Sequence record: NC_047769.1
From: Escherichia phage AAPEc6
Length of the DNA: 44,559 nt
Direction: 5' to 3' (one strand)
Part shown: one piece after another, positions 6,001 to 37,960 of the stretch
How positions within the stretch are numbered: position 1 is the stretch's first letter
Layout of the letters: each line of letters begins with the position of its first letter
The notes under the pieces: generated by a model
Seen by the model: the letters and a program-made list of their open reading frames with translations, nothing else
Told to the model about the DNA's origin: nothing
Databases searched by the model: none
Program-made: the position numbers and the translations under genes

Positions 6001-6044
6001 TTCCTTCCTCTTATTACCACTCAGAGGAAGGGCAGACCTAGGTT

Positions 6045-12302: not shown

Positions 12303-12370
12303 GTTATACTCAAGGTCACTTACGAGTGGCCTTTATGAATAACTTATTCCTACTTATTTTGTCTAACATG

Positions 12371-12393
12371 ATTTACTGGACACTATAGAAGGA
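12371..12393 (+). promoter_or_regulatory. Phage promoter (ATTTACTGGACACTATAGAAGGA)
   Basis: Exact consensus; preceded by GTCTAACATG, a palindrome half-site relic. Confidence 0.8.
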
Positions 12394-12450
12394 AAGCATA
12401 GGTAATCTAGGTTTATAAGGTAGTATAGGTAATTAAGTAAATATAGGAGA
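12394..12450 (+). other. AT-rich leader with phased ATAGGTAAT-type repeats
   Basis: ATAGGTAAT appears twice plus CTAGGTTTA and AAGGTAGTA at about 10-bp spacing. Confidence 0.4.
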
Positions 12451-12457
12451 TATAAAT

Positions 12458-12835
12458 ATGTCTATGGTAACTACTCTGGTATTCGTGGCTCAATACTTTC
12501 GTGGTCTTGCTAATAAGTTCAAGTCCAAGGCTATCAAAGCTATTGAGGCTCGCATCGAAGCAGTACAGGCAGAGCAAGTTAAAGTTGAAGAACATCGTAG
12601 TTCTCAAATGATTGACTGTCATAACCGCTACTATGCATCTCGTGATGAACTAAATGCACGTCAAGTCAAAGAGGTAGAAGATATGCTGGCACGTCACCAG
12701 CAAGAGCGTGACAGCCTGAAAGCTGAATTTGAAGAGAACAAGGCATCAATTGCTCTTGTACATCAAGCTGCATCTGACAGTCTGAAGAAAGAGATTGTTA
12801 TGCTGGAAATCGAACTGGATAACCTGACCAAATAA
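12458..12835 (+). CDS. Hypothetical protein (125 aa; N-terminal hydrophobic segment then coiled coil)
   Basis: ORF track; AGGAGA RBS. Confidence 0.55.
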   Translation: MSMVTTLVFVAQYFRGLANKFKSKAIKAIEARIEAVQAEQVKVEEHRSSQMIDCHNRYYASRDELNARQVKEVEDMLARHQQERDSLKAEFEENKASIALVHQAASDSLKKEIVMLEIELDNLTK

Positions 12836-12841
12836 GGGTTT

Positions 12842-13141
12842 ATGATGGAAGAAGTAATTCAAGCTAAACATGTAGGTATTATCTTTCGCGATCTAGAGCA
12901 GCGTAAAGTTGCAGGTCATACTCGTCTGGCTAAAGAGGAAGACACCGCAATCACTACTGTAGAACAAGCAGATGCCTATCGTGGACCAGAGTTCACTCAA
13001 GGTGAAACTTGTCACCAATTGAGCCTTTCACTTTGTGACACTATGGCTAGTGTAAATGTACAAGAGGTTGAAGACGGTGAATGTGTTAGTTATGTCTACC
13101 CTCTCGATACTATTGCACGTATTAAGGTAGTTCATAAGTAA
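12842..13141 (+). CDS. Hypothetical protein (99 aa)
   Basis: ORF track. Confidence 0.5.
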   Translation: MMEEVIQAKHVGIIFRDLEQRKVAGHTRLAKEEDTAITTVEQADAYRGPEFTQGETCHQLSLSLCDTMASVNVQEVEDGECVSYVYPLDTIARIKVVHK

Positions 13142-13163
13142 TTACTGGACACTATAGAACAAT
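13140..13163 (+). promoter_or_regulatory. Phage promoter (AATTACTGGACACTATAGAACAA)
   Basis: One mismatch upstream and AAC at +1 to +3. Confidence 0.65.
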
Positions 13164-13218
13164 AGGTCGGCTTAGTTCGGCCTATGATTGTGTAGTGTAA
13201 CAATAGGAGACTAAATAA

Positions 13219-14025
13219 ATGGCACGTGGTGATTTTGATTTTGGTGCTCAGGTTACTAAAGCTGAAGGTAAAGTATTTAAGAACCCTGAAGTTGGTGATC
13301 ATGAAGCAGTAATCTCTGGCATCATTCATGTTGGTTCCTTCCAAGATATCTTTAAGAAAGGTAATACCACTGAAGTTAAGAAGCCAGCAAACTTTGTTCT
13401 TGTTAAAATTATCCTGATGGGCGACGATGACAAGAATGAAGATGATTCTCGCATGGAACAGTGGATGGCTGTGCCATTGAAGTCTGGTGACAAGGCAACT
13501 CTTACTAAGTTCCTGAATGCAGTTGACCCTAAAGAATTGCTGGGTGGCTTCGATGATTTCATCGGTGAATGTCTGACTGCAACTATGGTTGGCTCTGGTG
13601 ATAAGAATGACGATGGCTCATTCAAGTATGTTAACTGGAAAGGATTTGGTGGTATGCCTGACAAGCTGAAGAAACTGGTCATTGCTCAGGTTGAAGAGGA
13701 AGGTCTGTCTATGACAGGTCACATTACCTTTGACAAGCTGACAAAAGAAATCCTTGATGACATCCCAGCTAACTTGGTGCGTCAATACTTCCTGAACGAG
13801 ACACCTCGTGGTAAGAACCTGTCTGTTGCTGGTTCTCATGTAGAAGCAATAATTAAAGCTGCTCGTGAAGAAGACCCAGAATGGAAGAAGGCTAAGAAGA
13901 AAGACGAGGAAGATGCTACCCCAGCTAATCGTAAACCTCTGGATACTGGTGAGTCTGTTCCGCAGGAAGTACCTGAAGCAGAAGATACGCCTGCACCGGA
14001 GATGGATGAGGACGCGGAATATTAA
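13219..14025 (+). CDS. Candidate ssDNA-binding protein (gp2.5-like; acidic C-terminus ...EMDEDAEY)
   Basis: 268 aa, beta-rich N-terminal region, long acidic tail ending in an aromatic residue; AGGAGA RBS; assignment by position and composition only. Confidence 0.5.
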   Translation: MARGDFDFGAQVTKAEGKVFKNPEVGDHEAVISGIIHVGSFQDIFKKGNTTEVKKPANFVLVKIILMGDDDKNEDDSRMEQWMAVPLKSGDKATLTKFLNAVDPKELLGGFDDFIGECLTATMVGSGDKNDDGSFKYVNWKGFGGMPDKLKKLVIAQVEEEGLSMTGHITFDKLTKEILDDIPANLVRQYFLNETPRGKNLSVAGSHVEAIIKAAREEDPEWKKAKKKDEEDATPANRKPLDTGESVPQEVPEAEDTPAPEMDEDAEY

Positions 14026-14034
14026 GGAGAACGG

Positions 14035-14253
14035 ATGAAAGTACAAATCGTAACTCTGCATTGCAAGAAAGGAATCACCACACTTGGCGGCAATACTTTT
14101 CACTCCTTCTCTGAAGGGGAGACATACGCCGACCTTCACTATATCTGGCGTGACGGGCAGCACGTGGTGAACTACAGCGACCCTGCGACTGGTAAACGCC
14201 ACGGCGTGTCGCTTCCGGCGCACGACATTGCTCAGGTGAACACAGTTTTATAA
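14035..14253 (+). CDS. Hypothetical protein (72 aa)
   Basis: ORF track; AAGGAGA RBS. Confidence 0.5.
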   Translation: MKVQIVTLHCKKGITTLGGNTFHSFSEGETYADLHYIWRDGQHVVNYSDPATGKRHGVSLPAHDIAQVNTVL

Positions 14254-14254
14254 A

Positions 14255-14270
14255 GTCTCACGTGTGAGAC
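14255..14270 (+). repeat. 16-bp palindrome GTCTCACGTGTGAGAC (copy 5), upstream of a promoter
   Basis: Read directly. Confidence 0.9.
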
Positions 14271-14285
14271 AAATCGGTGTCCGGT

Positions 14286-14308
14286 ATTTACTGGACACTA
14301 TAGAAGAG
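14286..14308 (+). promoter_or_regulatory. Phage promoter (ATTTACTGGACACTATAGAAGAG)
   Basis: Exact consensus. Confidence 0.85.
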
Positions 14309-14358
14309 AAGAATTTTAATCGGCGATAATGCCATAACCAACAAAAGGAGAATTTAAT

Positions 14359-14730
14359 ATGTTCAAGATTGAAACTATCGTAAACCGTGTTGTTAAAGGT
14401 GCTGCTCTGGTATCCGTTGAGTCTTTCATTATCGTCGATGAAGCTGATCAACTGGTAGCTGGTACTAAGGCTTACGATACCCGTGAAGAAGCTCAGGCTA
14501 AGATTGACAGCATGGGTAACTTCGCTGCTGGTCTGGAGTTTGCTCGTGCTTGCTTCCCTGAGCAGGCTGACAAAGCCCAGATCGGTAAGGCTAACATCGT
14601 AGCTGAATATCTAGATTGGATTGCTGCTGGTAAACCAGTGAAAGAAGTTAAGGCTGCTGAAGAAGCTGAATCTACGGCAGTAGAAGTGTCTGCACCGGAA
14701 GCTCCGGTTAGCGAAGAGGAAGAGTTTTGA
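14359..14730 (+). CDS. Small acidic protein with SSB-like C-terminal tail (...SEEEEF), 123 aa
   Basis: Consensus promoter upstream, AAAAGGAGA RBS, terminator downstream; helix-prone composition; tail resembles SSB or gp2.5 C-terminal tails. Confidence 0.6.
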   Translation: MFKIETIVNRVVKGAALVSVESFIIVDEADQLVAGTKAYDTREEAQAKIDSMGNFAAGLEFARACFPEQADKAQIGKANIVAEYLDWIAAGKPVKEVKAAEEAESTAVEVSAPEAPVSEEEEF

Positions 14731-14788
14731 TAATAGCAGGTGTAGCCTCTGTTAGTCCTAGTTGACTATCACGCTCACCTCATCTAAT

Positions 14789-14825
14789 GCCCTGTCTGCC
14801 TTAGTGTAGGCAGGGTCTTTTTGCG
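14789..14825 (+). terminator. Hairpin plus T-run terminator (CCCTGTCT ... AGGCAGGG then TCTTTTTG)
   Basis: 8-bp stem with one G-U, then a U-run; near-duplicate of the terminator at 23771. Confidence 0.65.
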
Positions 14826-14848
14826 TAATAGTTATTGGAGAATGAATT

Positions 14849-15121
14849 ATGCCGACTATTGAATCTCGAATTGAACTGGACATTAGCTACAATGCAATCA
14901 CCAGACAGTATATTGGGGTTGCCTATGATTACAAAACTGGTGAGAAGCTAGTGGAGGTGAGACAATGGGATGACTATTGGTTAAGACAGAACCTCCATGA
15001 TGCGGTGTCCTCCTTCCTGAAGGAGTGGCCTACATGCGACCAAACTTCGACTTCGGAGCTACAGTATCGGAAGACAATAACCTGTTGCTGTGGCCAACTG
15101 AAGGTAATCGAATCGCTTTAA
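14849..15121 (+). CDS. Hypothetical protein (90 aa), 3' end overlaps the exonuclease gene
   Basis: ORF track; GGAGA RBS. Confidence 0.4.
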   Translation: MPTIESRIELDISYNAITRQYIGVAYDYKTGEKLVEVRQWDDYWLRQNLHDAVSSFLKEWPTCDQTSTSELQYRKTITCCCGQLKVIESL

Positions 15122-16062
15122 TAGATGCTGATATGTTACCTTACATCGTAGGGTATACAATCAGTGATATGACTTATGTACGAGCCACAACTCGTGTTAA
15201 GTCAGGACAAGTCCCATCAATTAAAGACACACCTGAGTGTAAGCAAGCGTGTGACCGTGTGAACTCCTTGCTTAACTCTTGGGTGTACGCAGCAGAATGT
15301 GATGCAGCTAAGTTATTCATGACGAAATCAGAAGCTAACTTCCGTGTCCGCCTAGCATTCACCAAACCTTATAAGGGTCAACGTAAGACCGAGAAGCCTC
15401 CGTTCTTCTATGAATTGCGAGAGCATCTCTTAGAGGTTCATGGTGCAATCTTGGCAGATGGAGAAGAGGCTGATGACCTCATGAGCATCGCACAATGGGA
15501 CAGCCACCGCCGCTTCCAGCAAGATACAGGTAACGAGTTCCCTATCGGTAGTCCAGAGCATAAAGCATTCTCTGATACTTGCATCGTTTCCTTGGATAAG
15601 GATTTGATGATTGTTCCCGGTTGGCACCTTCAGCCGGGACAAGAGAAGAAATGGGTAGAGCCTATGGGTTGGCTTGAGTTACGCCGTAAGGCTAATGGTC
15701 AGGTTAAAGACCTTAAAGGTGCTGGCCTCATGTTTCATTATGCACAGATGATTATCGGTGATGATATTGATAACTATGCTGGCATACCTGGACGTGGTGC
15801 TAAATACGCCTATGATCTTCTCAAAGATTGTAAGACAGAGAAAGAGTTGTACATGGCAGTACTTGGTGCTTACAAGGCTAAGTTCGGACATGGACAAGTT
15901 AAGATTAAGAATTACCGAGGTGGTTATCGTATCGGCAAGGCTTTTGACCTGATGCTCGAATGTGGTCGCCTAGCTCACATGGCAAGATTCAAAGGTGATA
16001 TATGGCGAGCCGATAAGAACCCAATCTTGTGGGGAGATGATGCGGAATGGTTAGCAAATTAA
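15034..16062 (+). CDS. 5'-3' exonuclease (FEN family, T7 gp6-like)
   Basis: Motifs IALIDADMLPY, GEEADDLMS, SLDKDLMIVPGWH, IIGDDIDNYAGIPG; ATG at 15034 after AAGGAG (ORF track GTG at 15025). Confidence 0.85.
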   Translation: MRPNFDFGATVSEDNNLLLWPTEGNRIALIDADMLPYIVGYTISDMTYVRATTRVKSGQVPSIKDTPECKQACDRVNSLLNSWVYAAECDAAKLFMTKSEANFRVRLAFTKPYKGQRKTEKPPFFYELREHLLEVHGAILADGEEADDLMSIAQWDSHRRFQQDTGNEFPIGSPEHKAFSDTCIVSLDKDLMIVPGWHLQPGQEKKWVEPMGWLELRRKANGQVKDLKGAGLMFHYAQMIIGDDIDNYAGIPGRGAKYAYDLLKDCKTEKELYMAVLGAYKAKFGHGQVKIKNYRGGYRIGKAFDLMLECGRLAHMARFKGDIWRADKNPILWGDDAEWLAN

Positions 16063-16457
16063 AATCATCGGAGGTAGCAGCTTATAAGAGGGAATTGCTA
16101 GAGAAGCAAGGATGGAAGTGCCCCCTATGTGGCGGCAGTCTCAAGGCTGTTACTCCTATAAACCGTGTACTTGACCATGACCATGAGACAGGATTCTGCC
16201 GTGCTGTTGTATGCCGAGGCTGCAATGGTGCAGAAGGAAAGATTAAGGGTGTTATCTCTGGTTATGGTAAGGCTGGTAACAACCGTTACTTCCAGCTTCA
16301 ATGGTTAGAGCGACTATATGAATACTGGAAGTTACATAGTACGCCTCAGACAGATAAGTTATATCACAAACACCAAACGGAGGCAGAGAAGCGCGAGGCT
16401 AAGAACCGTAAGGCACGCCTTGCTTATGCAAGAAAGAAGGAGGTTAAAGTTGGGTAA
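16047..16457 (+). CDS. Endonuclease VII-type Holliday junction resolvase (His-Me finger)
   Basis: Motif CPLCGG...DHDHETGFCRAVVCRGCNGAEG. Confidence 0.85.
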   Translation: MVSKLKSSEVAAYKRELLEKQGWKCPLCGGSLKAVTPINRVLDHDHETGFCRAVVCRGCNGAEGKIKGVISGYGKAGNNRYFQLQWLERLYEYWKLHSTPQTDKLYHKHQTEAEKREAKNRKARLAYARKKEVKVG

Positions 16458-17457
16458 GCTTCGCAGCTTGTACAAAGACTCCGAGGTACTTGATGCAATC
16501 GAGCAAGCTACCGACGAGAAAGGTAATGTTAATTACAATGAGATGGCACGTGTATTATCGTGTCACCCTGTGGGTAAGAAGATTACCCGCCAGTTGGCTC
16601 GATACTGGCATGGTCAATTCAAGAAGACCAAGAAGAATGGTGATTATTACCAGACCCTTCTGCAAGAAGATAAGCGTATCAAAGAAGAGCGTAAGCTCAG
16701 GACTCCTGACCGCTACGAGGATTTGGCTATTGTGCCATTGCCTGACTCGCCTCATCGAAGTGTACTGGTGATCCCTGATACTCATGCACCTTATGAGCAC
16801 CCAGATACCCTAGAGTTCCTTGCAGCCGTGGCAGCACGTTACCGTCCAGACACAGTGGTACACCTAGGAGATGAGGCAGACAAACATGCCTTGTCATTCC
16901 ACGATTCGGACCCAAATCTGGATAGTGCTGGCATGGAGTTAGAGAAGGCTCGTATCTTCATGCACAAATTGCACAAGATGTTCCCTGTGATGCGCCTGTG
17001 TCACTCCAACCACGGCTCTATGCACTTCCGTAAGGCAAGCGCCAAGGGCATCCCTGTGCAATACCTGCGCACCTACCGTGAAGTTTTCTTCCCGCAGGGA
17101 GGTGGCGACCAGTGGGATTGGCAGCATACGCACGTCCTTGAGTTGCCGAATGGTGAACAAGTGGCATTCAAGCATCAACCTGCTGGCTCTGTCCTAGCAG
17201 ATGCAGCGCATGAGCGTATGAACCTAGTTTGTGGTCACTTGCACGGTAAGATGTCTGTGGAGTACGCACGTAATACACATGAACAGTATTGGGCTGTGCA
17301 AGGTGGCTGCTTAATTGATGAGTCATCCCGTGCATTTGCCTATGGTCGTGAGTCTAAATACAAGCCAGCATTAGGTTGTGTGGTCATTCTGGAGGGTGTG
17401 CCTCACATTGTCCCGATGCAAACCAATAGCGACAACCGTTGGATTGGCAAGATTTAG
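16450..17457 (+). CDS. Calcineurin-like metallophosphoesterase
   Basis: Motifs IPDTHAP, HLGDEAD, CHSNHG (DxH / GDxxD / GNH pattern); proposed TTG start at 16450 after AAGGAGG (ORF track frame 16318..17457). Confidence 0.7.
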   Translation: MGKLRSLYKDSEVLDAIEQATDEKGNVNYNEMARVLSCHPVGKKITRQLARYWHGQFKKTKKNGDYYQTLLQEDKRIKEERKLRTPDRYEDLAIVPLPDSPHRSVLVIPDTHAPYEHPDTLEFLAAVAARYRPDTVVHLGDEADKHALSFHDSDPNLDSAGMELEKARIFMHKLHKMFPVMRLCHSNHGSMHFRKASAKGIPVQYLRTYREVFFPQGGGDQWDWQHTHVLELPNGEQVAFKHQPAGSVLADAAHERMNLVCGHLHGKMSVEYARNTHEQYWAVQGGCLIDESSRAFAYGRESKYKPALGCVVILEGVPHIVPMQTNSDNRWIGKI

Positions 17458-17476
17458 TTGACACTATAGAACAAAG
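17452..17476 (+). promoter_or_regulatory. Phage promoter (ATTTAGTTGACACTATAGAACAAAG)
   Basis: Closest of all copies to the canonical SP6 promoter ATTTAGGTGACACTATAGAAG; overlaps the phosphoesterase stop codon. Confidence 0.7.
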
Positions 17477-17557
17477 GGCTAGGTAAGACTTTATCGGCTG
17501 GCGTATCCAAATGATATTGCACTAGCCCTTGATTGTATAGTGAATGGAGGATTCAAT

Positions 17558-17821
17558 ATGTCACACTATGAATGTAAGAAGTGTCATAAGCGTTATGATT
17601 ACTGTACTTGTGGTCAAGAGAAAACATCTTTTAAAGTTGGAGACAAGGTATTTCGTAATGAAAAAGATTCGATTCCTTGGAATCAATACTGCAAAGAAGC
17701 TGGTATTGACCCTGATAGCCCTGTAACCATAGATGATATTGATGGCATTAACTTGTGCTTTCGTGAGGTGAGGGGTGCAGGTTGGGATTCCAAAAATTCA
17801 AACTTGCATCTGATAAGTTAG
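17558..17821 (+). CDS. Small Cys-rich protein (HYECKKCHKRYDYCTCG), probable zinc binding
   Basis: ORF track 17540 (GTG); ATG at 17558 after GGAGGA. Confidence 0.5.
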   Translation: MSHYECKKCHKRYDYCTCGQEKTSFKVGDKVFRNEKDSIPWNQYCKEAGIDPDSPVTIDDIDGINLCFREVRGAGWDSKNSNLHLIS

Positions 17822-18060
17822 ACAACAATATGGTAACTAAGCCTAAGCACTACGAGTTCTTTGATGGCGTAGAGGCAATCACTATCATTGCCCGCAGTAT
17901 GACCGAGAAGCAATTCGCTGGCTATTGCATGGGTAATGCTTTGAAGTACCGTTTACGTGCAGGTAAGAAGTTCAACACTGAAGAAGACCTGAAGAAAGCA
18001 GATTACTACAAAGAGTTATTCCAGAAGCATCGTCACGAATGTATTGATGAGGATATTTGA
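17782..18060 (+). CDS. Conserved phage protein, DUF3310-like (start uncertain)
   Basis: Pattern KPKHY...GNALKYRLRAGKK...EDLKKADYY recalled as typical of DUF3310; not verified. Confidence 0.45.
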   Translation: MGFQKFKLASDKLDNNMVTKPKHYEFFDGVEAITIIARSMTEKQFAGYCMGNALKYRLRAGKKFNTEEDLKKADYYKELFQKHRHECIDEDI

Positions 18061-18061
18061 T

Positions 18062-19009
18062 ATGAATATCTTTGAGTTCCTAGGTCTTCCAGAAGACCAC
18101 CGCAATCATCCATTCATGCTGGTGAAGCATCGCGGTGAAGTTCCTGAGAAGAAATTAACTTTTCCATGTTATGCACAGGTGAAACGAGATGGTATCTTTT
18201 CTGCTGTTGTTGTTCGCACTGATGGTGTCGTTGGCATTTTTGGTCGCACTGGTAAGAAATTGGCAAACACTGAAGGACTCGAACAAGCATTTGCTACCTT
18301 TCCGGTTGGCATTTATCTTGGTGAGCTTCAGTCTATGGCCGTTGATATCTACCTTGAGGCGCTCTCTGGGGTTGTGAACCCCAATCGCACTGAGCCACTT
18401 GATTTCATAGGCCAGCAGATTAAAGACAACCTGTATATCGACTTCTTCGATATGTTAACTATTAAGGCATTCCATGATGGATTCACTGCTGTTTCTTATC
18501 TCAAACGTTACGATGCTTTACATCGTCGTATCGGCGCTCATCTTAGCGGGTGCAACGCTATCCTTCCTATCACTCCTTGCCATAATGAGCGAGAAGTTGA
18601 AGCGTTTGCGCAAGAACAAATAGATGCAGGCCGGGAAGGTGCTGTGTTTAAACTGGACTGTGACTATGAAGCAGGCCATAAAGGTTATCGTCAGACTAAA
18701 GAAGTACGTAAGGTAACTTATGACCTTACTTGTATTGGCTTTGAAGAAGGTAAAGGCAAGTACAAAGGTAAGGTAGCTAACCTCATTTTCAAATGGAAAG
18801 GAGGCAAGACAATCAAAGCTATGTTAGGCAAAGGGTGGACTCATGCAGATGCAGAACAGATGTTCCACGATATTAAACATGGCGGACGATTGAATGTCAT
18901 TGGTAAAATCTTTGAAGTCAAAGGTCTTCAGGATTCAAGCAAGGGCAACATTCGTCTGCCCAAAGCGGGAGAATTAAGACATGACAAAGATGAACCAGAT
19001 TTCTTTTGA
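18062..19009 (+). CDS. ATP-dependent DNA ligase (T7 gp1.3-like)
   Basis: Adenylation motif I KRDG (AQVKRDGIF); ORF track 18044 (TTG); ATG at 18062 after GAGGA. Confidence 0.85.
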   Translation: MNIFEFLGLPEDHRNHPFMLVKHRGEVPEKKLTFPCYAQVKRDGIFSAVVVRTDGVVGIFGRTGKKLANTEGLEQAFATFPVGIYLGELQSMAVDIYLEALSGVVNPNRTEPLDFIGQQIKDNLYIDFFDMLTIKAFHDGFTAVSYLKRYDALHRRIGAHLSGCNAILPITPCHNEREVEAFAQEQIDAGREGAVFKLDCDYEAGHKGYRQTKEVRKVTYDLTCIGFEEGKGKYKGKVANLIFKWKGGKTIKAMLGKGWTHADAEQMFHDIKHGGRLNVIGKIFEVKGLQDSSKGNIRLPKAGELRHDKDEPDFF

Positions 19010-19196
19010 TAGCATGAAGGCAACTCGTGCCGTTGAGGTAGCAGAAGCTATCTTCGAAACTTTATCCTGTGGCATGGAAGTGCCATATACTTTACTTGCT
19101 GATGCAGAAGAACTTGGTCTTTCTGTAGAAGCTATCCAAGAGAAGGTTGACGAATTATATGGTACAGACGAAGAAGAAACCGACGATTTCATTTGA
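18981..19196 (+). CDS. Small acidic protein (71 aa, C-terminus ...DEEETDDFI)
   Basis: ORF track; GGGAGA RBS. Confidence 0.45.
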   Translation: MTKMNQISFDSMKATRAVEVAEAIFETLSCGMEVPYTLLADAEELGLSVEAIQEKVDELYGTDEEETDDFI

Positions 19197-19325
19197 AGGA
19201 ATGGAGATGCTTGAGATGATTCTCAAGCCTTCTTCTCCGAAGGTGACTAAGACTCATGAAGAGTTAATCGTTGATGAAGTGAAGCGTTACATCATGGATT
19301 GTGTCAGAGCACAACTGGTGGTCCA

Positions 19326-19787
19326 ATGATACGTCCAGCTTCCTTCCTAGATATTCCTGAGATTATAAACCTTGGGAATAAATATGTGGAAGAGGAAGTC
19401 AAGGTAGTGGCCCATCACTCAGCCTCATGGAATGCAGAACAAAGCGCACATAACCTTTGCGCATCTCTTAGTAGAGAAGATTTATTCCTATGGGTTGCTG
19501 TAGATGAAGGGCAGATTGTAGGGTTCCTGTGGGCTGGCTATCACGAGTTGGCCCCTTGGACACCTGTAAGGGTTGCCTCTGACATTCTCTTTTATATTAT
19601 ACCAGAGAAGCGAGGAACCCTACTTGGTATGCGTCTCATCAAAGCCCTAAAGCAATGGGCTAGTGATAATGAATGCTCTGAGGTTCGCCTGTCTATCGCC
19701 TCTGGTATTAATGAAGAACGTGTCGGACGTATGTATAAGCGACTTGGCTTTGAACCGTTTGGCACTGTGTACAACCTGAAGTTCTAA
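19326..19787 (+). CDS. GNAT-family N-acetyltransferase
   Basis: Acetyl-CoA-binding-like segment (QIVGFLWA...RGTLLGMRLIKAL) and overall GNAT pattern; ORF track starts at 19299. Confidence 0.7.
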   Translation: MIRPASFLDIPEIINLGNKYVEEEVKVVAHHSASWNAEQSAHNLCASLSREDLFLWVAVDEGQIVGFLWAGYHELAPWTPVRVASDILFYIIPEKRGTLLGMRLIKALKQWASDNECSEVRLSIASGINEERVGRMYKRLGFEPFGTVYNLKF

Positions 19788-19796
19788 GGAGATAAC

Positions 19797-20006
19797 ATGG
19801 GTGTTGTAAAGAAAGCATTTAAGGCTATCGGTCTTGCTCAAGATGCACCACGTATTGAAGCGAAAGTGCCAGCACAGCAGCTTGAGCGTAAGCCCGAGAC
19901 TGAAGCTGAAGATATTCAGATTGGTGCAGGGGGTGATGATGCTACTGCATCTGCAAAAGGCAAGCGTGGCCTTGTCCGTCCGGTAGCTTCTAGCCTGAAG
20001 GTGTGA
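19797..20006 (+). CDS. Small protein just upstream of portal (69 aa), possibly virion-associated
   Basis: ORF track; GGAGA RBS; position analogous to T7 gene 7.3. Confidence 0.45.
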   Translation: MGVVKKAFKAIGLAQDAPRIEAKVPAQQLERKPETEAEDIQIGAGGDDATASAKGKRGLVRPVASSLKV

Positions 20007-20007
20007 T

Positions 20008-22478: not shown

Positions 22479-22483
22479 TCAGT

Positions 22484-22508
22484 ATTTACTGGACACTATA
22501 GAAGGGAG
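22484..22508 (+). promoter_or_regulatory. Phage promoter (ATTTACTGGACACTATAGAAGGGAG) driving the capsid gene
   Basis: Exact consensus; transcript 5' end predicted to form a GGGAGA/TCTCCC stem-loop (22504-22519). Confidence 0.85.
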
Positions 22509-22554
22509 AAATGTCTCCCTAAATTATCAATTTGATTTATAAGGAGGTTTATTA

Positions 22555-23763: not shown

Positions 23764-23770
23764 TACCTAT

Positions 23771-23806
23771 GCCCTATCTACCTTGCGTAGGTAGGGTTCT
23801 TTTTTG
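23771..23806 (+). terminator. Hairpin plus T-run terminator after the capsid gene (T7 T-phi analog)
   Basis: CCCTATCTA ... TAGGTAGGG stem followed by TTCTTTTTTG. Confidence 0.7.
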
Positions 23807-23818
23807 TTAGGAGGATTC

Positions 23819-30652: not shown

Positions 30653-30669
30653 TACCTAACTCAAGGCTT

Positions 30670-30685
30670 GTCTCACATGTGAGAC
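30670..30685 (+). repeat. 16-bp palindrome (copy 6) with the same 24-bp context as copy 3 (ggcttGTCTCACATGTGAGACagg)
   Basis: Read directly; lies between two internal virion protein genes. Confidence 0.9.
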
Positions 30686-30716
30686 AGGTCTTTATGATAG
30701 GCACTATGGAGGAATT

Positions 30717-33700
30717 ATGGAACAAGACATTAAGACTAATTGGGCTGGATATGTCCAGTCTACTCCTGAGCCGTTTTCTATTGAGGCGGCTCCGGTATCG
30801 GCTCCTACGATACGCCAGCGTAATGAGTTACAAGAGCAAGTTCTTGAAGCTAAAGCTGACGCTGACATTTTAGGTGCTGTAGGTGCTGCCTTCCAGAATG
30901 AGTGGTTGGCATTCGGAGGCAAGCGGTGGTATGACCGTGCCACTGCTGATTTCACACCTCAACCAGACTTTGAGATACAACCTGAGCAACGTGAAGCACT
31001 ACGTTTCAAATATGGCACGGATATGATGCAGACAATCACTGAGGGTGTTCGTTCTGAGGATGAATTGAACTTCCGTATTCAGAATGCTGATGAAGACCTT
31101 GAGCGCAATAAGCGCATTGCTCAGGCTGGCTGGGTTGGCTCTGTGGCGACGATTGGCGCTGCTGTGCTTGACCCTGTGGGATGGGTTGCCTCTATTCCAA
31201 CCGGTGGTGCCGCTAAAGTTGGACTCGTAGGCCGTGCTGTGCGTGGCGCTATCGCCGCTGGCGTGAGTAATGCCGCTATTGAATCCGTATTGGTCCAAGG
31301 TGACATGACTCGTGATTTAGATGACATTATGGTAGCACTAGGTTCCGGTATGGCTATGGGTGGCATTATTGGCGCTGTAGCGCGTGGTAGGGCCACTAAG
31401 CTCAGTGAGCAAGGGGATGACAGGGCTGCGAGCATTGTGCGCAGTGCAGACGCAGGGGACCGCTATGTGCGTGCTGTTGCTGATGATAGTATCGGTGCGA
31501 TGCGTGTTAAGGGTGAAGAGGTACTCACTGAGGGTGCATTTGATATCTCTAGCAAAGGTGAAGATTTGCTGAAAACCCTACAGCGGGAAGGTAATGCAAT
31601 TGATATGACCCCTCGCCGCTGGGCCGGAACTCTGTCTGCCCTTGGTACTGTCGTACATTCCTCTCAGGATGCAAGTGTACGCGGCCTTGGTGCTCGCCTG
31701 TTTGAGTCCCCCCAAGGCTTAGGTATGCAGAAGGCATCTGCTAGTCTCATGCAGAATACTAACTTGAACCGTCTGAAATCTGCTGATATGAATCGTTTCA
31801 ACGATGGGTTCGATTTATGGCTCAAAGAGAATAATATCAACCCGGTTGCAGGTCATACTAACTCTCACTATGTGCAGCAATATAATGAGAAGGTATGGGA
31901 AGCTGTACGCATCGGTATGGATGAGTCTACGCCTAAGTCTATCCGTATGGCAGCAGAGGGGCAGCAAGCTATGTATCGTGAAGCATTAGCATTACGTCAA
32001 CGCTCTGGTGAAGCTGGGTTTGAAAAGGTTAAAGCAGATGATAAGTACATGCCTGATATTTTTGACAGTATGAAGGCTCGTCGTCAGTTCAGTATGCACG
32101 ATAAAGAGGACATCATTGAGTTATTCTCTCGTGCATACCAGAATGGTTCTCGTAAGGTTCCAAAGGAAGTGGCTGATGATATTGCACGAGCACAAGTAAA
32201 CCGCGTTGCTGATGCCACCTTGACCGGACAGCTTAGCTTTGAAAAGGCTATGTCTGGTCAAACCAAAGCAGAATATGAAGCACTCATGCGCAAAGCAGGC
32301 TTTAGTGATGAAGAGATTGAAAAGATGGTAGAAGCTCTGGATAATAAAGAAACCAGAGATAATATCTCTAACCGAGCTAAGATGAGTTTAGGCTTAGATG
32401 TTACTCAAGAGTACAATGGCATTCGTATGCGTGACTTTATGAACACTAACGTGGAAGAGTTAACAGATAACTACATGAAGGAAGCGGCAGGTGGTGCTGC
32501 CTTGGCTCGTCAAGGTTTCTCTACCTATCAGGCTGCACTTAATGCAATTGATCTTGTAGAGCGAAATGCACGAAATGCAGCTAAAGATACAAAAGCACAC
32601 GCACAATTTGAAGCGGAGTCGGCTAAGATCCGTCAATCAGAGCCTGATTACAAGAAGGCACAAGAGAAGATTGAAGAGTTAAAGAAGCGACTTAAATTGA
32701 AAGAGAAAGATGAAGCAGCAGGTCTGGCTATTGATGAAGAAATCCGTCAGATGCGAGAGGGGCTTCGCTTGATTATGGGTAAATCTATCGATTCAAACCC
32801 ACAAGATTTGTCTACTAAAATGCTGCGTCGTGGGCGTGACATTACAGGCGTACTTCGCTTAGGTCAGATGGGCTTCGCACAGCTAGGTGAACTTGCTAAC
32901 TTCATGGGTGAGTTTGGTATTGCTGCCACCACTATGGCTTTAGGTAAGCAATTCCGCTTCACCTCTAAGGCGTTGCGTAATGGCGATGGCTTCTTTCGAG
33001 ATAAGAATTTAGCTGAGGTTGAGCGAATGGTAGGTTACATTGGTGAAGACAACTGGCTAACAACTAAGGGTGCGCGTCCAGATGAGTTTGGTGATGTAAC
33101 CACAGTGCGAGGTATGATGGCCCATTTTGACCAGTCCATGAACTCTATACGACGTGCTCAGACAAACCTATCCCTCTTCCGCATGGCACAGGGTTCTCTG
33201 GAGCGAATGACCAATAGGCAAATAGCTTTGTCTTTCATTGACCACCTTGAAGGCAAGAAGATTATTCCTCAGAAGAAACTGGAGGAACTTGGTCTTACTC
33301 AGGAGTTCATGACTAATCTACAGAAGCACTATGATGCTAACTCTAAAGGTTCTGGCTTGCTTGGCTTTGATACAATGCCTTATGCCATGGGTGAAACTTT
33401 AGCTAATGCTATTCGTCGTAAGTCAGGTCTAATTATCCAACGTAACTTCATTGGTGATGAAGGTATCTGGATGAACAAAGCACTAGGTAAGACATTTGCA
33501 CAGCTTAAGTCATTCTCTCTTGTATCTGGTGAGAAGCAATTTGGTCGAGGGATTCGCCACGATAAGATTGGTCTAGCTAAGAAGACAGCCTTTGGCTTTG
33601 CTTTGGGTTCGATGGTGTATGCAGCGAAAGCCTATGTGAACTCTATTGGACGAGAAGACCAAGATGAATATCTGGAAGAGAAGTTATCGCCTAAAGGGTT

Positions 33701-34025
33701 GGCCTTTGGTGCAATGGGTATGATGAGTACAACTGCTGTATTTAGTCTAGGTGGAGATTTCTTAGGTGGCCTAGGTGTTCTACCTTCTGAGTTAGTACAA
33801 TCCCGTTATGAGGCTGGCTTTCAGACTAAGGGTTTGATAGACCAAATACCACTAGTAGGTGTTGGTCAAGATGCATATCGTTTAGCAGATTCTATAACTA
33901 AATACGCAGAGGGTGATACAGAAGGTGTAGATGTGGCACGTAGGGCTTTACGCTTAGTGCCTCTAGCTAATGTAATAGGAATCCAGAACGCATTGCGTTA
34001 TGGCTTAGATGAACTGGAGGATTAA
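30717..34025 (+). CDS. Large internal virion / ejection protein (gp16-like)
   Basis: 1102 aa; position and size. Confidence 0.75.
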   Translation: MEQDIKTNWAGYVQSTPEPFSIEAAPVSAPTIRQRNELQEQVLEAKADADILGAVGAAFQNEWLAFGGKRWYDRATADFTPQPDFEIQPEQREALRFKYGTDMMQTITEGVRSEDELNFRIQNADEDLERNKRIAQAGWVGSVATIGAAVLDPVGWVASIPTGGAAKVGLVGRAVRGAIAAGVSNAAIESVLVQGDMTRDLDDIMVALGSGMAMGGIIGAVARGRATKLSEQGDDRAASIVRSADAGDRYVRAVADDSIGAMRVKGEEVLTEGAFDISSKGEDLLKTLQREGNAIDMTPRRWAGTLSALGTVVHSSQDASVRGLGARLFESPQGLGMQKASASLMQNTNLNRLKSADMNRFNDGFDLWLKENNINPVAGHTNSHYVQQYNEKVWEAVRIGMDESTPKSIRMAAEGQQAMYREALALRQRSGEAGFEKVKADDKYMPDIFDSMKARRQFSMHDKEDIIELFSRAYQNGSRKVPKEVADDIARAQVNRVADATLTGQLSFEKAMSGQTKAEYEALMRKAGFSDEEIEKMVEALDNKETRDNISNRAKMSLGLDVTQEYNGIRMRDFMNTNVEELTDNYMKEAAGGAALARQGFSTYQAALNAIDLVERNARNAAKDTKAHAQFEAESAKIRQSEPDYKKAQEKIEELKKRLKLKEKDEAAGLAIDEEIRQMREGLRLIMGKSIDSNPQDLSTKMLRRGRDITGVLRLGQMGFAQLGELANFMGEFGIAATTMALGKQFRFTSKALRNGDGFFRDKNLAEVERMVGYIGEDNWLTTKGARPDEFGDVTTVRGMMAHFDQSMNSIRRAQTNLSLFRMAQGSLERMTNRQIALSFIDHLEGKKIIPQKKLEELGLTQEFMTNLQKHYDANSKGSGLLGFDTMPYAMGETLANAIRRKSGLIIQRNFIGDEGIWMNKALGKTFAQLKSFSLVSGEKQFGRGIRHDKIGLAKKTAFGFALGSMVYAAKAYVNSIGREDQDEYLEEKLSPKGLAFGAMGMMSTTAVFSLGGDFLGGLGVLPSELVQSRYEAGFQTKGLIDQIPLVGVGQDAYRLADSITKYAEGDTEGVDVARRALRLVPLANVIGIQNALRYGLDELED

Positions 34026-34987
34026 TGAGTTATACTTTCACAGAACATATAGCCAACGGTACGCAAGTAACCTATCCCTTTAGCTTTGCTGGTAGGGATA
34101 AAGGTTATCTTCGTGCCTCAGATGTGATAGTGGAGTCTCTTCAAGGTAACACTTGGATTGAGGTTACATCTGGCTGGCAACTAACTGGCACGCACCAGAT
34201 TACTTTTGATGTAGCACCAGTTGCAGGTTTGAAGTTCCGTATTCGAAGGGAAGTACAAAAGGAGTATCCATACGCTGAGTTTGACCGTGGTGTTACCTTG
34301 GATATGAAGTCTTTAAATGGTTCTTTCATTCATATACTGGAGATTACACAGGAGTTACTTGACGGGTTTTATCCAGAAGGATACTTCATTAAACAGAATG
34401 TAAGCTGGGGCGGCAATAAGATTACTGATTTGGCTGATGGCACAAATCCTGGAGATGCAGTAAATAAAGGGCAGCTTGATGCCATCGACAAGAAGCATAC
34501 AGATTGGAACGCCAAACAGGACATTGAGATTGCTGGCCTTAAGGCTGGTATGACTTCTGGTATTGCGCACAGAACTGTTCCTTGGTACACGATAGCCCAA
34601 GGTGGTGAGATTTCCGTAAAACCACCTTATGAATTTCAAGATGCACTAGTTTTCCTTAATGGGGTATTGCAGCACCAAATTGTAGGCGCATACTCTATAA
34701 GCAACAACACTATCACTTTCGCAGAGCCGCTTGTGGCGGGTACAGAGGTGTATGTGCTGATTGGTAGTCGTGTGGCTACATCTGAACCTAATATTCAGTT
34801 GGAGTTGAACTTTGACTTAGTAGAAGGCCAACAAGTAGTACAGATTGGCTCTGCATTTAAGTACATTGAGGTCTACCTTGATGGATTATTACAACCTAAA
34901 CTTGCTTATCAGGTAGACGGTGACATTGTTACTTTCTCAGAAAGAGTACCAGAATGCCGGATGACTGCTAAGATTATCACAGCATAA
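34025..34987 (+). CDS. Tail fiber adaptor (T7 gp17 N-terminal domain-like)
   Basis: N-terminus YTFTEHIANGTQVTYPFSFAGRDKGYLRASDVIV resembles the T7 tail fiber N-terminal anchoring domain; only 320 aa. Confidence 0.7.
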   Translation: MSYTFTEHIANGTQVTYPFSFAGRDKGYLRASDVIVESLQGNTWIEVTSGWQLTGTHQITFDVAPVAGLKFRIRREVQKEYPYAEFDRGVTLDMKSLNGSFIHILEITQELLDGFYPEGYFIKQNVSWGGNKITDLADGTNPGDAVNKGQLDAIDKKHTDWNAKQDIEIAGLKAGMTSGIAHRTVPWYTIAQGGEISVKPPYEFQDALVFLNGVLQHQIVGAYSISNNTITFAEPLVAGTEVYVLIGSRVATSEPNIQLELNFDLVEGQQVVQIGSAFKYIEVYLDGLLQPKLAYQVDGDIVTFSERVPECRMTAKIITA

Positions 34988-34996
34988 GGAGGTGGG

Positions 34997-35191
34997 ATGA
35001 TTAACTCCGAACTGGTAGATAGTGGTGTGAAGCTTGCGCCACCTGCACTCGTATCAGGTGGGTACTTCCTCGGTATCAGTTGGGATAATTGGGTGTTAAT
35101 AGCAACATTCATTTATACCGTGTTGCAAATTGGGGACTGGTTTTATAATAAGTTCAAGATTTGGAGGGAGAAGCGTGAGCGTACACAATAA
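34997..35191 (+). CDS. Class II holin (T7 gp17.5-like)
   Basis: ISWDNWVLIATFIYTVLQIG resembles T7 holin LSLNEWFYVAAIAYTVVQIG; AAGGAGG RBS. Confidence 0.75.
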   Translation: MINSELVDSGVKLAPPALVSGGYFLGISWDNWVLIATFIYTVLQIGDWFYNKFKIWREKRERTQ

Positions 35192-35474
35192 ACATGCAGC
35201 TACAGAGGACGAGGTTGGCATTCTGCATGGTGCTATTACCAAAATCTTCAATAAGAAAGCACAGGCAATACTGGACACTATAGAAGAAGACCCTGATGCA
35301 GCATTACATTTAGTGTCTGGTAAGGATATTGGTGCGATGTGTAAGTGGGTTCTTGATAACGGCATTACCGCCACACCTGCTGCACAGCAGGAAGAGTCCA
35401 AGTTATCTAAGCGCCTCAAGGCTATCCGAGAGGCATCCAGTGGTAAAATAATTCAATTTACAAAAGAGGAGTAA
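35175..35474 (+). CDS. Candidate terminase small subunit (GTG start)
   Basis: No in-frame ATG near the 5' end; GTG at 35175 after GGAGGGAG; position between holin and large terminase. Confidence 0.45.
   Translation: MSVHNKHAATEDEVGILHGAITKIFNKKAQAILDTIEEDPDAALHLVSGKDIGAMCKWVLDNGITATPAAQQEESKLSKRLKAIREASSGKIIQFTKEE
35268..35288 (+). promoter_or_regulatory. Promoter-like sequence (ATACTGGACACTATAGAAGAA) inside the small-terminase ORF
   Basis: Core matches the consensus; the upstream ATTT is degenerate. Confidence 0.4.
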
Positions 35475-35475
35475 T

Positions 35476-35919
35476 ATGCATAGATGGTGTGAATCTCAAG
35501 GTTATACCATCTTACCTTCTGGTGTCATCCTTTCAAAGGGTGGCACCCCTCTCAAGCCTTTCAAGGTGGGTAGGGGTTATTTAGCAGTTAAAATTAAAAA
35601 TAAAGAAGGTAAATGGCGTAATGTCTATGTTCATCACTTAGTGGCTTATAAGTATTTACCTAAAACCGATAATGAAGTAAACCACAAAGACGGCAATAAG
35701 CACAACAATGATGTTAGCAACTTGGAGTGGGTGACAAGAAGCGAGAATAACTACTTAAAATGCAATGGAAATGATAGGAGTGCCTTAAATAATTACTTAG
35801 CAAGATTAAAAGATTGCTTCTTGCAGGGTAAGGGTGTAGCAGAAACCGCTAGGCTTACTGGTAAAAGTGAACCAAGGGTTTCTTCTCTCTTTAAGGAGTG
35901 GCGAAATGGCAAAGGCTAG
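35476..35919 (+). CDS. HNH homing endonuclease
   Basis: Motif VNHKDGNKHNNDVSNLEWVTRSENN; A-rich codon usage; GAGGAG RBS. Confidence 0.85.
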   Translation: MHRWCESQGYTILPSGVILSKGGTPLKPFKVGRGYLAVKIKNKEGKWRNVYVHHLVAYKYLPKTDNEVNHKDGNKHNNDVSNLEWVTRSENNYLKCNGNDRSALNNYLARLKDCFLQGKGVAETARLTGKSEPRVSSLFKEWRNGKG

Positions 35920-37804
35920 AGAATCACAGGCAGAGGCATTAAAGCGGTGGGAAAACCTTAAAGAACTACAAGACACTTTTAAGTATACAGCGGAAGGTTT
36001 GCTTCTCTTTGCAGATACAGTTATTCATAACTTAATTGCAGGCAACCCTCATCTGATTCGTATGCAGGCGGATATCTTGAAGTTCCTATTTTACGGACAC
36101 AAGTACCGCCTCATCGAAGCGCCTCGTGGTATCGCTAAGACAACACTATCAGCAATCTATACGGTATTCCGTATTATTCATGAACCGCATAAGCGTATCA
36201 TGGTTGTGTCCCAAAACGCCAAGCGAGCAGAGGAAATCGCAGGTTGGGTAGTTAAAATCTTCCGTGGCTTAGACTTTCTTGAGTTTATGCTGCCGGATAT
36301 CTACGCTGGGGACCGTGCATCCGTTAAGGCGTTTGAGATTCATTACACCCTACGTGGTAGTGATAAGTCTCCTTCTGTATCCTGTTACTCAATCGAAGCA
36401 GGTATGCAGGGCGCTCGTGCTGATATTATTCTAGCGGATGACGTAGAGTCGATGCAGAATGCTCGTACGGCAGCGGGCCGTGCCTTGCTTGAGGAGCTGA
36501 CTAAGGAGTTTGAATCTATCAACCAGTTTGGGGATATCATTTACCTTGGTACACCTCAGAACGTAAACTCTATCTACAACAACCTACCTGCTCGTGGTTA
36601 CTCTGTTCGTATCTGGACTGCGCGTTACCCTTCAGTAGAGCAAGAGCAATGTTATGGCGACTTCCTTGCACCTATGATTGTTCAAGATATGAAGGACAAC
36701 CCAGCACTTCGCTCAGGGTACGGGTTGGATGGTAATAGTGGTGCACCTTGTGCCCCTGAAATGTATGATGATGAAGTCCTGATTGAGAAGGAAATCTCTC
36801 AGGGTGCTGCTAAGTTCCAGCTTCAGTTCATGCTTAACACTCGCATGATGGATGCTGACAGATACCCATTACGCCTGAACAATCTAATCTTCACCTCGTT
36901 TGGTACAGAGGAAGTCCCTGTGATGCCTACGTGGAGTAATGATTCCATAAACATCATTGGTGATGCACCTAAGTATGGTAACAAGCCTACGGATTTCATG
37001 TACAGACCTGTAGCTCGCCCATATGAATGGGGTGCTGTCTCCCGCAAGATTATGTATATTGACCCTGCGGGTGGTGGTAAGAATGGAGATGAGACGGGTG
37101 TAGCCATCGTATTCCTGCACGGCACATTCATTTATGTGTATCAGTGCTTTGGTGTACCTGGCGGATACCGAGAGTCGTCCCTGAATCGCATTGTGCAGGC
37201 CGCAAAGCAGGCGGGTGTTAAAGAGGTATTCATTGAGAAGAACTTTGGTCATGGCGCGTTTGAGGCGGTAATTAAGCCGTACTTTGAACGAGAGTGGCCT
37301 GTAACTCTGGAAGAGGATTACGCCACCGGACAGAAAGAGTTGCGTATCATTGAGACGCTGGAGCCGCTCATGGCAGCCCATAGGCTTATCTTCAATGCAG
37401 AGATGGTGAAGTCAGACTTTGAGTCGGTACAGCACTATCCGCTTGAACTACGCATGTCCTACAGTCTTTTCAATCAAATGTCGAACATAACGATTGAGAA
37501 GAACAGCCTCCGGCATGATGACCGCCTAGACGCCCTGTATGGCGCTATACGGCAATTAACTTCTCAGATAGACTATGACGAGGTTACACGGATTAATCGC
37601 CTCAGAGCGCAGGAGATGCGCGATTACATCCATGCTATGAACACACCTCATCTACGCAGGGCAATGCTATATGGAGATTACGGTACTGAGCGAAGAGTGA
37701 CCAACACTTCCGTAGCGATGCAGCAGCGAGTTTACGGGCAGAACTACCGAAATAAATCGGCAAGCAGAAATACACTTTCTGCAAGGATTTCAAGGACTTA
37801 TTAA
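35906..37804 (+). CDS. Terminase large subunit (gp19-like)
   Basis: ATPase and nuclease segments (APRGIAKTT, ADIILADDVE, IYLGTPQN); ATG at 35906 after AAGGAG (ORF track 35867). Confidence 0.93.
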   Translation: MAKARESQAEALKRWENLKELQDTFKYTAEGLLLFADTVIHNLIAGNPHLIRMQADILKFLFYGHKYRLIEAPRGIAKTTLSAIYTVFRIIHEPHKRIMVVSQNAKRAEEIAGWVVKIFRGLDFLEFMLPDIYAGDRASVKAFEIHYTLRGSDKSPSVSCYSIEAGMQGARADIILADDVESMQNARTAAGRALLEELTKEFESINQFGDIIYLGTPQNVNSIYNNLPARGYSVRIWTARYPSVEQEQCYGDFLAPMIVQDMKDNPALRSGYGLDGNSGAPCAPEMYDDEVLIEKEISQGAAKFQLQFMLNTRMMDADRYPLRLNNLIFTSFGTEEVPVMPTWSNDSINIIGDAPKYGNKPTDFMYRPVARPYEWGAVSRKIMYIDPAGGGKNGDETGVAIVFLHGTFIYVYQCFGVPGGYRESSLNRIVQAAKQAGVKEVFIEKNFGHGAFEAVIKPYFEREWPVTLEEDYATGQKELRIIETLEPLMAAHRLIFNAEMVKSDFESVQHYPLELRMSYSLFNQMSNITIEKNSLRHDDRLDALYGAIRQLTSQIDYDEVTRINRLRAQEMRDYIHAMNTPHLRRAMLYGDYGTERRVTNTSVAMQQRVYGQNYRNKSASRNTLSARISRTY

Positions 37805-37826
37805 TTACTGGACACTATAGAAGGAA
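37803..37826 (+). promoter_or_regulatory. Phage promoter (AATTACTGGACACTATAGAAGGAA)
   Basis: Near-consensus; overlaps the terminase stop codon. Confidence 0.75.
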
Positions 37827-37839
37827 GGCCCAGATAATA

Positions 37840-37885
37840 AGAGAAATAATAGGTAATATAGGTTAACCTAGGTTATATAGGTATG
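37840..37885 (+). other. AT-rich block of four phased TAGGT(A/T)A repeats; candidate secondary origin or regulatory site
   Basis: ATAGGTAAT, ATAGGTTAA, CTAGGTTAT, ATAGGTATG at about 9-10 bp spacing; followed by hairpin GGGTGTAC-TCCT-GTACACCC (37895-37914). Confidence 0.4.
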
Positions 37886-37960
37886 CCTTAGTATGGGTGT
37901 ACTCCTGTACACCCTATTCCTTACTACCTTACTATATTTACATAATAGGAGAGAGAGACA

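Follow-up and report, generated by a model that had tools for sequence, protein, structure and literature searches.

Escherichia phage AAPEc6 (NC_047769.1) carries three arrays of short, phased repeats with an AGGTA core, each of which lies just downstream of a phage promoter and coincides with one of the three least stable duplex segments of the genome. By analogy with phage T7, we tentatively propose that these arrays are parts of transcription-activated replication origins of the T7 type that would also bear a conserved, phased AGGTA motif lacking in T7. The window analyzed, which comprises 44,559 bp, is a complete K1-5-like genome (Vectrevirus, Molineuxvirinae, SP6 group). A 4-kb segment is 98.4% identical to the corresponding DNA of phage K1-5, and the + strand carries every gene of the window.

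Results

The window contains 12 phage promoters with the core (G/C/T)GACA(C/G)TATAG, and the three that precede the repeat blocks share the core ACTATAG. Relative to the promoter start, the arrays begin at +27 (block 1), +3 (block 2), and +32 (block 3), and they consist of 9 to 10 bp units with the consensus ATAGGTART, repeated at a mean period of 9.50, 9.17, and 9.33 bp, respectively. An initial annotation of this DNA had located the blocks at 5941-6000, 12394-12450, and 37840-37885 and described each as promoter-proximal; the sequence bears out all three locations, and the promoter +1 lies 3 to 32 nt before the array in every case. Its estimate of about four copies per block is accurate for block 3, whereas block 1 has seven units and block 2 has five plus a degenerate one. 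Likewise, the spacing that it equated with a helical turn matches one only approximately because the mean period in the window, 9.2 to 9.5 bp and not ~10.5 bp, is shorter than a turn of B-DNA. The first three units of block 1 read AAAGG(G/A) rather than TAGGT, and block 2 continues in phase through the degenerate unit AAGTA (12436) to the true Shine-Dalgarno sequence of the next gene (12445). Certain units are perfect 10-bp palindromes (AGGTTAACCT and AGGTATACCT).

The motif TAGGTWA occurs 33 times in the window, compared with 12.3 ± 3.5 times in shuffled sequences. A scan of both strands for chains of at least three AGGT units spaced 9 to 10 bp apart recovered the three blocks only; first-order Markov shuffles gave a mean of 0.024 such chains, and a chain of four was seen in 0 of 500. 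A relaxed scan (AGG[TA], 8-11 bp spacing, at least four units) again returned just the three blocks, with 0.04 expected, and Tandem Repeats Finder reported period-9 arrays at 5932-5984, 12398-12447, and 37849-37883 with the consensus ATAGGTAAT or ATAGGTTAT. Being multiple, uniform in orientation, and conserved in core and spacing, the repeats have the attributes by which iterons or binding arrays are recognized.

We compared the window with the complete genomes of phages K1-5, K1E, and SP6, Proteus phage PM93, Klebsiella phages IME184 and Kp7, and Pectobacterium phage PP1, to which we added ~25 metagenomic loci after the RNA polymerase gene and ~25 after the large terminase gene. At the positions of blocks 1 and 3, arrays with the same core, orientation, and spacing are found across the subfamily, each shortly 3' of a phage promoter, and they persist in at least five genera, with flanking protein identity falling to ~70%. 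The block after the DNA polymerase gene (block 2) is restricted to Vectrevirus, SP6, and IME184. Genome-wide chain scans of the relatives revealed almost no further chains, the chance expectation being 0.00 to 0.04 per genome. The exception is one extra four-unit AGG[TA] chain with 8-11 bp spacing in each of K1-5 (L001, 27422) and K1E (L003, 28993), which sits within a virion-protein gene and is not present in the window. In T7, the genome-wide scan found no AGG[TA] chain.

While the spacer bases have diverged among these phages, the AGG cores and their spacing are kept. In a set of 49 distinct leaders, of which 24 follow the RNA polymerase gene and 25 the terminase gene, the prevailing spacings are 9 and 10 bp, with 56 and 51 instances at block 1 and 25 and 60 at block 3. 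Units without AGG leave gaps of 18, 19, 20, 21, or 28 bp, and the phase is thus kept where a unit has been lost; single units are missing in some relatives. The initial annotation had suggested aligning related genomes to examine the repeat phase, and at syntenic sites the phase is conserved, with the qualification that in close relatives, K1-5 included, (TA)n slippage has lengthened a single spacer to 11 or 15 bp. The unit profile reads A-T-A-G-G-T-A-R-T, with moderate information outside AGG and values of 0.6 for T and 0.26 for A after AGG. In Kp7, PP1, and PM93, the block 1 and block 3 arrays are alike unit by unit, sharing position-specific units, and so give the impression of a single ordered element that was copied, not of a uniform microsatellite. 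Microsatellites of the (TA)n and (GA)n type at 37855-37860 and 37947-37957, which fall in the block 3 leader and the ribosome-binding region of gene 41, differ in length from one close relative to another (loci L001, L003, L128, and L151).

Duplex stability was calculated over the whole genome from nearest-neighbor energies in 60-bp windows. The three least stable 60-mers of the genome are the three blocks, at -62.3, -64.6, and -65.0 kcal/mol compared with a mean of -80.9 kcal/mol (standard deviation 4.7), and block 2 is the least stable of all. The blocks rank 1st, 3rd, and 7th when 60-mers are ordered by AT content and 1st, 2nd, and 6th when they are ordered by scarcity of C, and in Vectrevirus they are nearly C-free on the sense strand. 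The first 60 nt downstream of the block promoters are also the most favorable to an RNA:DNA hybrid among the 12 promoters (-13.3, -8.7, and -6.7 kcal/mol). A top-ranked low-stability segment also occurs in these leaders in SP6, IME184, Kp7, and PP1, sometimes beside the array rather than inside it, and GC-richer relatives give a weaker signal.

When T7 (L180) was scanned as a control, its four least stable 60-mers (at 417, 5931, 18561, and 39248) were found to start 8 to 19 bp after the starts of phiOL, phi1.1B, phi6.5, and phiOR, and a plain stability scan therefore flags origin-associated promoters. Dunn and Studier reportedly described phiOL, in 1983, as a replication promoter. The primary origin of T7 is phi1.1A/B, and phiOR and phi6.5 are secondary origins (PMC8373140). 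In such an origin, a phage promoter is joined to an adjacent AT-rich segment, the transcript primes DNA polymerase, and helicase is recruited to the bubble; phiOR serves as a plasmid origin for the T7 replisome (bioRxiv 10.1101/2024.07.25.605042).

The initial annotation had drawn a parallel between T7 origins and block 3, which follows the large terminase gene as phiOR does. This parallel stands, and it is strengthened by the tandem promoters and the location of block 1 between the RNA polymerase gene and gene 1.1, as well as by the stability scan, which recovers T7 origin promoters and here selects exactly the three blocks. From sequence alone, block 1 can be likened to the T7 primary origin: it shares the interval between the RNA polymerase and gp1.1 genes, two tandem phage promoters, an R1.1-like hairpin nearby, and an exceptionally unstable duplex straight after the promoter. 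The gp1.1 homolog, which K1-5 records call simply gene 8, fixes the synteny with the T7 primary-origin interval. Unlike the T7 primary origin, however, block 1 has phased AGGTA repeats, its array lies between the two promoters and not after both, its R1.1-like hairpin is upstream of the first promoter, and each promoter is flanked by a 16-bp palindrome. Upstream of both block 1 and block 2 lies an R1.1-like hairpin, an arrangement also seen at T7 phi1.1B. Block 3 resembles phiOR, phiOL, and phi6.5 in that a segment among the least stable in the genome follows a phage promoter, but it differs from phiOR in lying 6.7 kb from the right end with several genes downstream and in having a repeat array and a conserved GC hairpin. 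In contrast to the T7 set, no array-bearing counterpart of phiOL was seen at the left end, and block 2 has no exact positional counterpart in T7.

Two other known systems invite comparison. Like the iterons of plasmid and lambda-type origins, the arrays are short tandem repeats of one orientation beside an easily unwound segment, but their units are 9 to 10 bp and not ~17 to 22 bp long, no initiator gene was found, and they lie within a transcribed leader. The T7 RNase III sites R3.8, R4.7, R6.5, and R13 are located just after promoters, and the blocks resemble them as structured, AT-rich leaders directly following a phage promoter, whereas blocks 2 and 3 lack such a stem. The true R1.1 look-alike is not an array but the separate hairpin before block 2, which together with its flanks (12298-12352, ACTCAAGGTCACTTACGAGTGGCCTTTATGA) is closely similar to the region of the T7 R1.1 RNase III site. 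The features discussed here and below are listed in Table 1.

Table 1. Coordinates of the three repeat blocks and neighboring features in the AAPEc6 window
Feature	Position	Strand	Details
Block 1	5925..5990	+	Seven phased AGG units: 5925, 5936, 5945, 5955, 5964, 5973, 5982
Block 2	12390..12449	+	AGG at 12390, 12400, 12409, 12418, 12427
Block 3	37851..37888	+	Four AGG units: 37851, 37860, 37870, 37879
Terminator-like hairpin after RNA polymerase gene	5798..5821	+	AGGCCATTCC-TTCG-GGAGTGGCCT, then T-rich tail
16-bp palindrome GTCTCACATGTGAGAC	5864..5879	.	Directly upstream of P1
Phage promoter P1 (block 1)	5882..5899	+	ATTTACCGGACACTATAG; +1 = 5899
5' leader hairpin CCGTCGGAGACGG	5905..5917	+	One stem pair covaries among relatives (G-C, A-T, C-G)
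Pyrimidine (CCT-rich) arm	5986..6015	+	Partly complementary to array units
Palindrome GTCTCACATGTGAGAC, second copy	6045..6060	.	Terminator-like; 147-162 nt from P1 start; just upstream of P2
Phage promoter P2	6066..6083	+	ATTTACCGGACAGTATAG; +1 = 6083
Gene for 42-aa T7 gp1.1 homolog	6114..6242	+	Pfam Phage_1_1, E = 1.7e-14
Hairpin before block 2	12312..12333	+	AAGGTCACT-TAC-GAGTGGCCTT; with its flanks, closely similar to T7 R1.1 region
Block 2 promoter	12371..12388	+	+1 = 12388
Block 3 promoter	37803..37820	+	+1 = 37820; overlaps end of large terminase gene
GC hairpin 3' of block 3	37895..37914	+	GGGTGTAC-TCCT-GTACACCC; conserved, compensatory changes among relatives
Pyrimidine-rich tract TATTCCTTACTACCTTACTATATTTA	37915..37940	+	Between GC hairpin and ribosome-binding site of gene 41 (ATG 37961)

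The region around block 1 runs in the order RNA polymerase gene, hairpin, palindrome, P1, 5' hairpin, array, CCT arm, palindrome, P2, and gene 1.1 homolog. The 3' half of the first hairpin (region 5790-5845) is like that of the T7 R1.1 hairpin. An array unit and the CCT arm are predicted to form an RNA stem (GUAAUAGGUAUU / AAUACCUAUUAC). The interval between P1 and P2 contains no + strand open reading frame of at least 20 aa; it is non-coding, which leaves P1 without a gene of its own. The 16-bp palindrome is present in eight copies (0.13 expected), at 325, 5864, 6045, 6845, 8256, 9401, 14255, and 30670. Most are intergenic, the 6845 copy lies within the primase-helicase gene, and three are found 2 to 10 bp upstream of phage promoters; a terminator scan flagged copies as terminator-like. 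Because relatives have GTCCAACGTGTTGGAC at the same places, both halves of the palindrome have changed together; its possible roles include those of terminator, processing hairpin, and operator. Near block 1 (~5000-7000), GC skew rises from ~0.05-0.08 to 0.10-0.14, a change that might stem from an origin or from the transition between host and phage transcription. Mapping of the origin by GC skew was set aside, as the skew is positive all along the genome with just a weak step near 5-6 kb.

The GC hairpin that follows block 3 is terminator-like, and the record of one relative annotates it as a putative terminator. The motif CTTAGTR, present in 37 copies versus 15 expected, clusters near both genome ends (88-178, 354-394, and 44130-44499) and around early promoters, reminiscent of the short end repeats of T7; a conserved copy is found at 37887, just 3' of block 3 (GCCTTAGTA). 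Other tandem repeats near the ends are AGGGAGGCCT at 44417-44450 (period 10, 3.3 copies) and AACCTAGCCT at 275-301 (period 9, 2.8 copies).

In the database records of K1-5, K1E, SP6, PM93, IME184, Kp7, PP1, and others that we inspected, the arrays are unannotated. Full-text literature searches returned no description of the repeats; Dobbins et al. 2004 and Scholl et al. 2004 fell outside these searches, and a prior mention or origin prediction there is possible. A pattern scan of IMG/VR for TAGGT arrays yielded mostly unrelated repeat families. Unrelated viral contigs with phased TAGGT-type arrays of their own include marine contigs (L105, L063, L053, and L081) and contigs from other metagenomes (L010, L017, L029, and L030), with examples such as CCTAGGTGGGA repeats and TTAGGTAATTTAGGTAATATTAGGTA located 3' of a TATAAT-like box. 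In the marine contig L081, the array has the opposite orientation and lies upstream of a gene.

We examined the folding of the leaders as RNA. The block 1 leader forms a core stem of 11 to 12 bp, extendable to ~17 to 25 bp depending on the genome, in which an array unit pairs with the CCT arm and the other units occupy the loop. Block 1 leaders are better folded than their shuffles in most genomes (z = -1.8, -2.0, -3.0, -0.6, -5.7, and -2.1), while in the window the leaders of blocks 2 and 3 do not exceed shuffled sequences in stability (z = -0.27 and +0.26); block 3 leaders across genomes give z values from -0.05 to -2.6, all negative. RNAalifold found no conserved pairing that involves the array, and Rfam gave 0 matches at the gathering score over the whole window. 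A long block 3 stem between the purine array and the pyrimidine tract was rejected, since RNAalifold on 12 diverse leaders supports the GC hairpin alone and the z values are modest. An RNase III site in blocks 2 and 3 was likewise rejected, the required conserved irregular hairpin being absent.

Several other roles were considered and discarded. The arrays are poor candidates for ribosome binding or stand-by sites: TAGGT units pair with the anti-Shine-Dalgarno sequence at -3.6 to -3.8 kcal/mol, compared with a mean of -8.1 kcal/mol for 18 real sites; 23% of random 9-mers reach -3 kcal/mol; and the T that follows AGG weakens rather than strengthens a would-be Shine-Dalgarno sequence. An RNA that titrates CsrA/RsmA would require GGA, whereas the units are mostly GGU. 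A hidden small open reading frame, suggested by the equivalence of 9 nt to three codons, was dismissed because block 1 has no start codon and blocks 2 and 3 have stops in all frames. The repeats are also unlikely to be promoter half-site decoys, as their core is identical among phages with differing promoter specificity regions.

The initial annotation had further raised the possibility of DNA bending and named curvature prediction as a check. A wedge-model path calculation, which depends on the wedge parameters used and in which a phased A-tract control was strongly curved, ranked the predicted curvature of the blocks no higher than the 90th to 97th percentile, and none reached the top 15 sites of the genome; with a period of 9.2 to 9.5 bp, intrinsic curvature was rejected. 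Neither Pfam nor PHROGs identified a DNA-binding domain among the 10 unassigned proteins scanned, and PDB sequence comparison revealed no relative of known structure for the subfamily-wide proteins gp6, gp10, and gp16.

Discussion

The explanation that we tentatively prefer casts the blocks as promoter-proximal, easily melted segments in which origins are unwound and primed. The T7 primary origin would have its equivalent in block 1 and the phiOR secondary origin in block 3, and block 2 would represent a lineage-specific extra copy of the promoter-plus-array module. Replication would begin as phage RNA polymerase initiates at the adjacent promoter, opening the least stable duplex that the genome contains. 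The nascent RNA of Vectrevirus would be purine-rich and C-poor, favoring a persistent RNA:DNA hybrid, and, at blocks 1 and 3, terminator-like hairpins 76 to 162 nt downstream may halt the polymerase. The short transcript could then be extended by phage DNA polymerase, with the primase-helicase loading onto the displaced strand that bears the repeats. The AGGTA core is kept even where AT-richness is not, so the core at its 9 to 10 nt spacing, as judged from its sequence conservation, probably serves recognition by a putative partner, which might belong to the replisome or be some other factor that acts on the RNA or the displaced strand. That the arrays are recognition sites of a dedicated, origin-marking protein of SP6-like phages, or that their transcripts are functional non-coding RNAs, we consider unlikely; in the latter case, short transcripts that stop at the downstream hairpins could act by binding a protein of the host or the phage. 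An RNA-leader or double-stranded iteron role could coexist with an origin role.

Several considerations weigh against the origin proposal. Origin function rests on analogy because we found no replication studies of this phage group in the literature that we reached, the AT-richness of non-coding leaders often has other causes, and the stability values depend on the nearest-neighbor energy parameters used. In the GC-richer genomes of Kp7 and PM93, the arrays themselves are neither the least stable DNA nor C-poor, and the hybrid-favoring composition is absent from three of the four T7 origin leaders. T7 origins have no AGGTA repeats by Tandem Repeats Finder or chain scans, and AT-richness alone therefore fails to explain the conserved AGGTA core and spacing. 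(An 11-nt repeat after T7 phiOR, a visual impression, was unsupported by the same two methods.) Finally, the SP6 primase site, reportedly 5'-GCA-3' (Tseng et al. 2000), is absent from the block 1 array; a single copy lies in or near block 2 (+ strand, 12396) and another in or near block 3 (- strand, 37884).

Among the rival explanations, an RNA-level role is conceivable but somewhat unlikely. The arrays would then form a conserved 5'-leader module of three transcripts, or short non-coding RNAs ending at the downstream hairpins, that controls stability, processing, or translation, either because AGG units pair with CCU-rich tracts, to form a stem of the RNase III type in block 1 or to sequester the 5' end, or through a protein that binds single-stranded AGGU. 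Such a role fits the location of the arrays, which in every genome examined lie on the transcribed sense strand between +3 and +90, and the compensatory changes in the flanking hairpins, which imply RNA-level (or single-strand) selection on the leaders. The generally better-than-shuffled folding of block 1 leaders through a stem of array unit and CCU arm, the uniformly negative block 3 z values, the in-phase run of block 2 up to a true Shine-Dalgarno sequence, and the resemblance of the unit ATAGGT to the phage ribosome-binding context ATAGGAG point the same way. The array, however, stays outside any conserved pairing found by RNAalifold, the window leaders of blocks 2 and 3 have shuffle-level stability, the units are poor anti-Shine-Dalgarno partners and mostly GGU where CsrA needs GGA, and Rfam has nothing to match. 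Moreover, a second promoter lies 3' of block 1 and serves the genes that follow without the block.

Recognition as double-stranded DNA, with iteron-like sites bound by a phage-encoded or conserved enterobacterial protein that coats promoter-proximal DNA for promoter regulation or origin binding, is in our judgment also unlikely. The retention of the core ATAGGTART and its 9 to 10 bp spacing amid diverged spacers, the phase held across degenerate units, the uniform orientation, the position-specific units shared by the block 1 and block 3 arrays of Kp7, PP1, and PM93, and the palindromic units are all as expected of such sites. Yet a period of 9.2 to 9.8 bp would set successive sites on different faces of B-DNA, viable close relatives tolerate a spacer of 11 or 15 bp, no initiator protein is known in T7-group replication, and the protein searches described above offered no candidate by domain or structure. 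It is very unlikely that the arrays have no sequence-specific role and are a slippage by-product in AT-rich non-coding DNA, reflecting base composition or nothing under selection. Length polymorphism of (TA)n and (GA)n within the same leaders, the loss of single units in some relatives, and the ability of T7 origins to function without such repeats are compatible with that account, but core, spacing, orientation, and location all persist across the genera sampled despite diverged spacers and in GC-richer genomes of other composition, and chance predicts almost no arrays per genome. Intrinsically bent DNA arising from helically phased elements is the least credible explanation. In its favor, the ~10-bp repeat hinted at phasing, and the predicted curvature of block 3 lies at the 97th percentile, but the period is 9.2 to 9.5 bp in the window and 9 to 10 bp in relatives, the blocks contain no A-tracts, and none is among the 15 most curved sites of a genome scan in which the A-tract control was strongly curved.

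Phages of the SP6/K1-5 group are widely used, both in phage therapy and as a source of RNA polymerase. We found no published origin mapping for this group in the literature searched, and the present analysis offers three precisely located candidate origins. No earlier description of a probable T7-style origin in a repeat-bearing form, an assignment made by analogy, emerged from full-text searches. The duplex-stability scan, having picked out the promoters associated with T7 origins, could be extended to other Autographiviridae. A conserved motif on top of an AT-rich segment suggests a recognition step that is missing from the T7 model. Origin marking by a protein, if true, would contrast with the view of this group as initiating replication with RNA polymerase alone. 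If a binding partner exists, the picture of how replication starts in SP6-like phages would change, and the arrays with their partner could provide parts for orthogonal replication systems comparable to those built on T7 phiOR.

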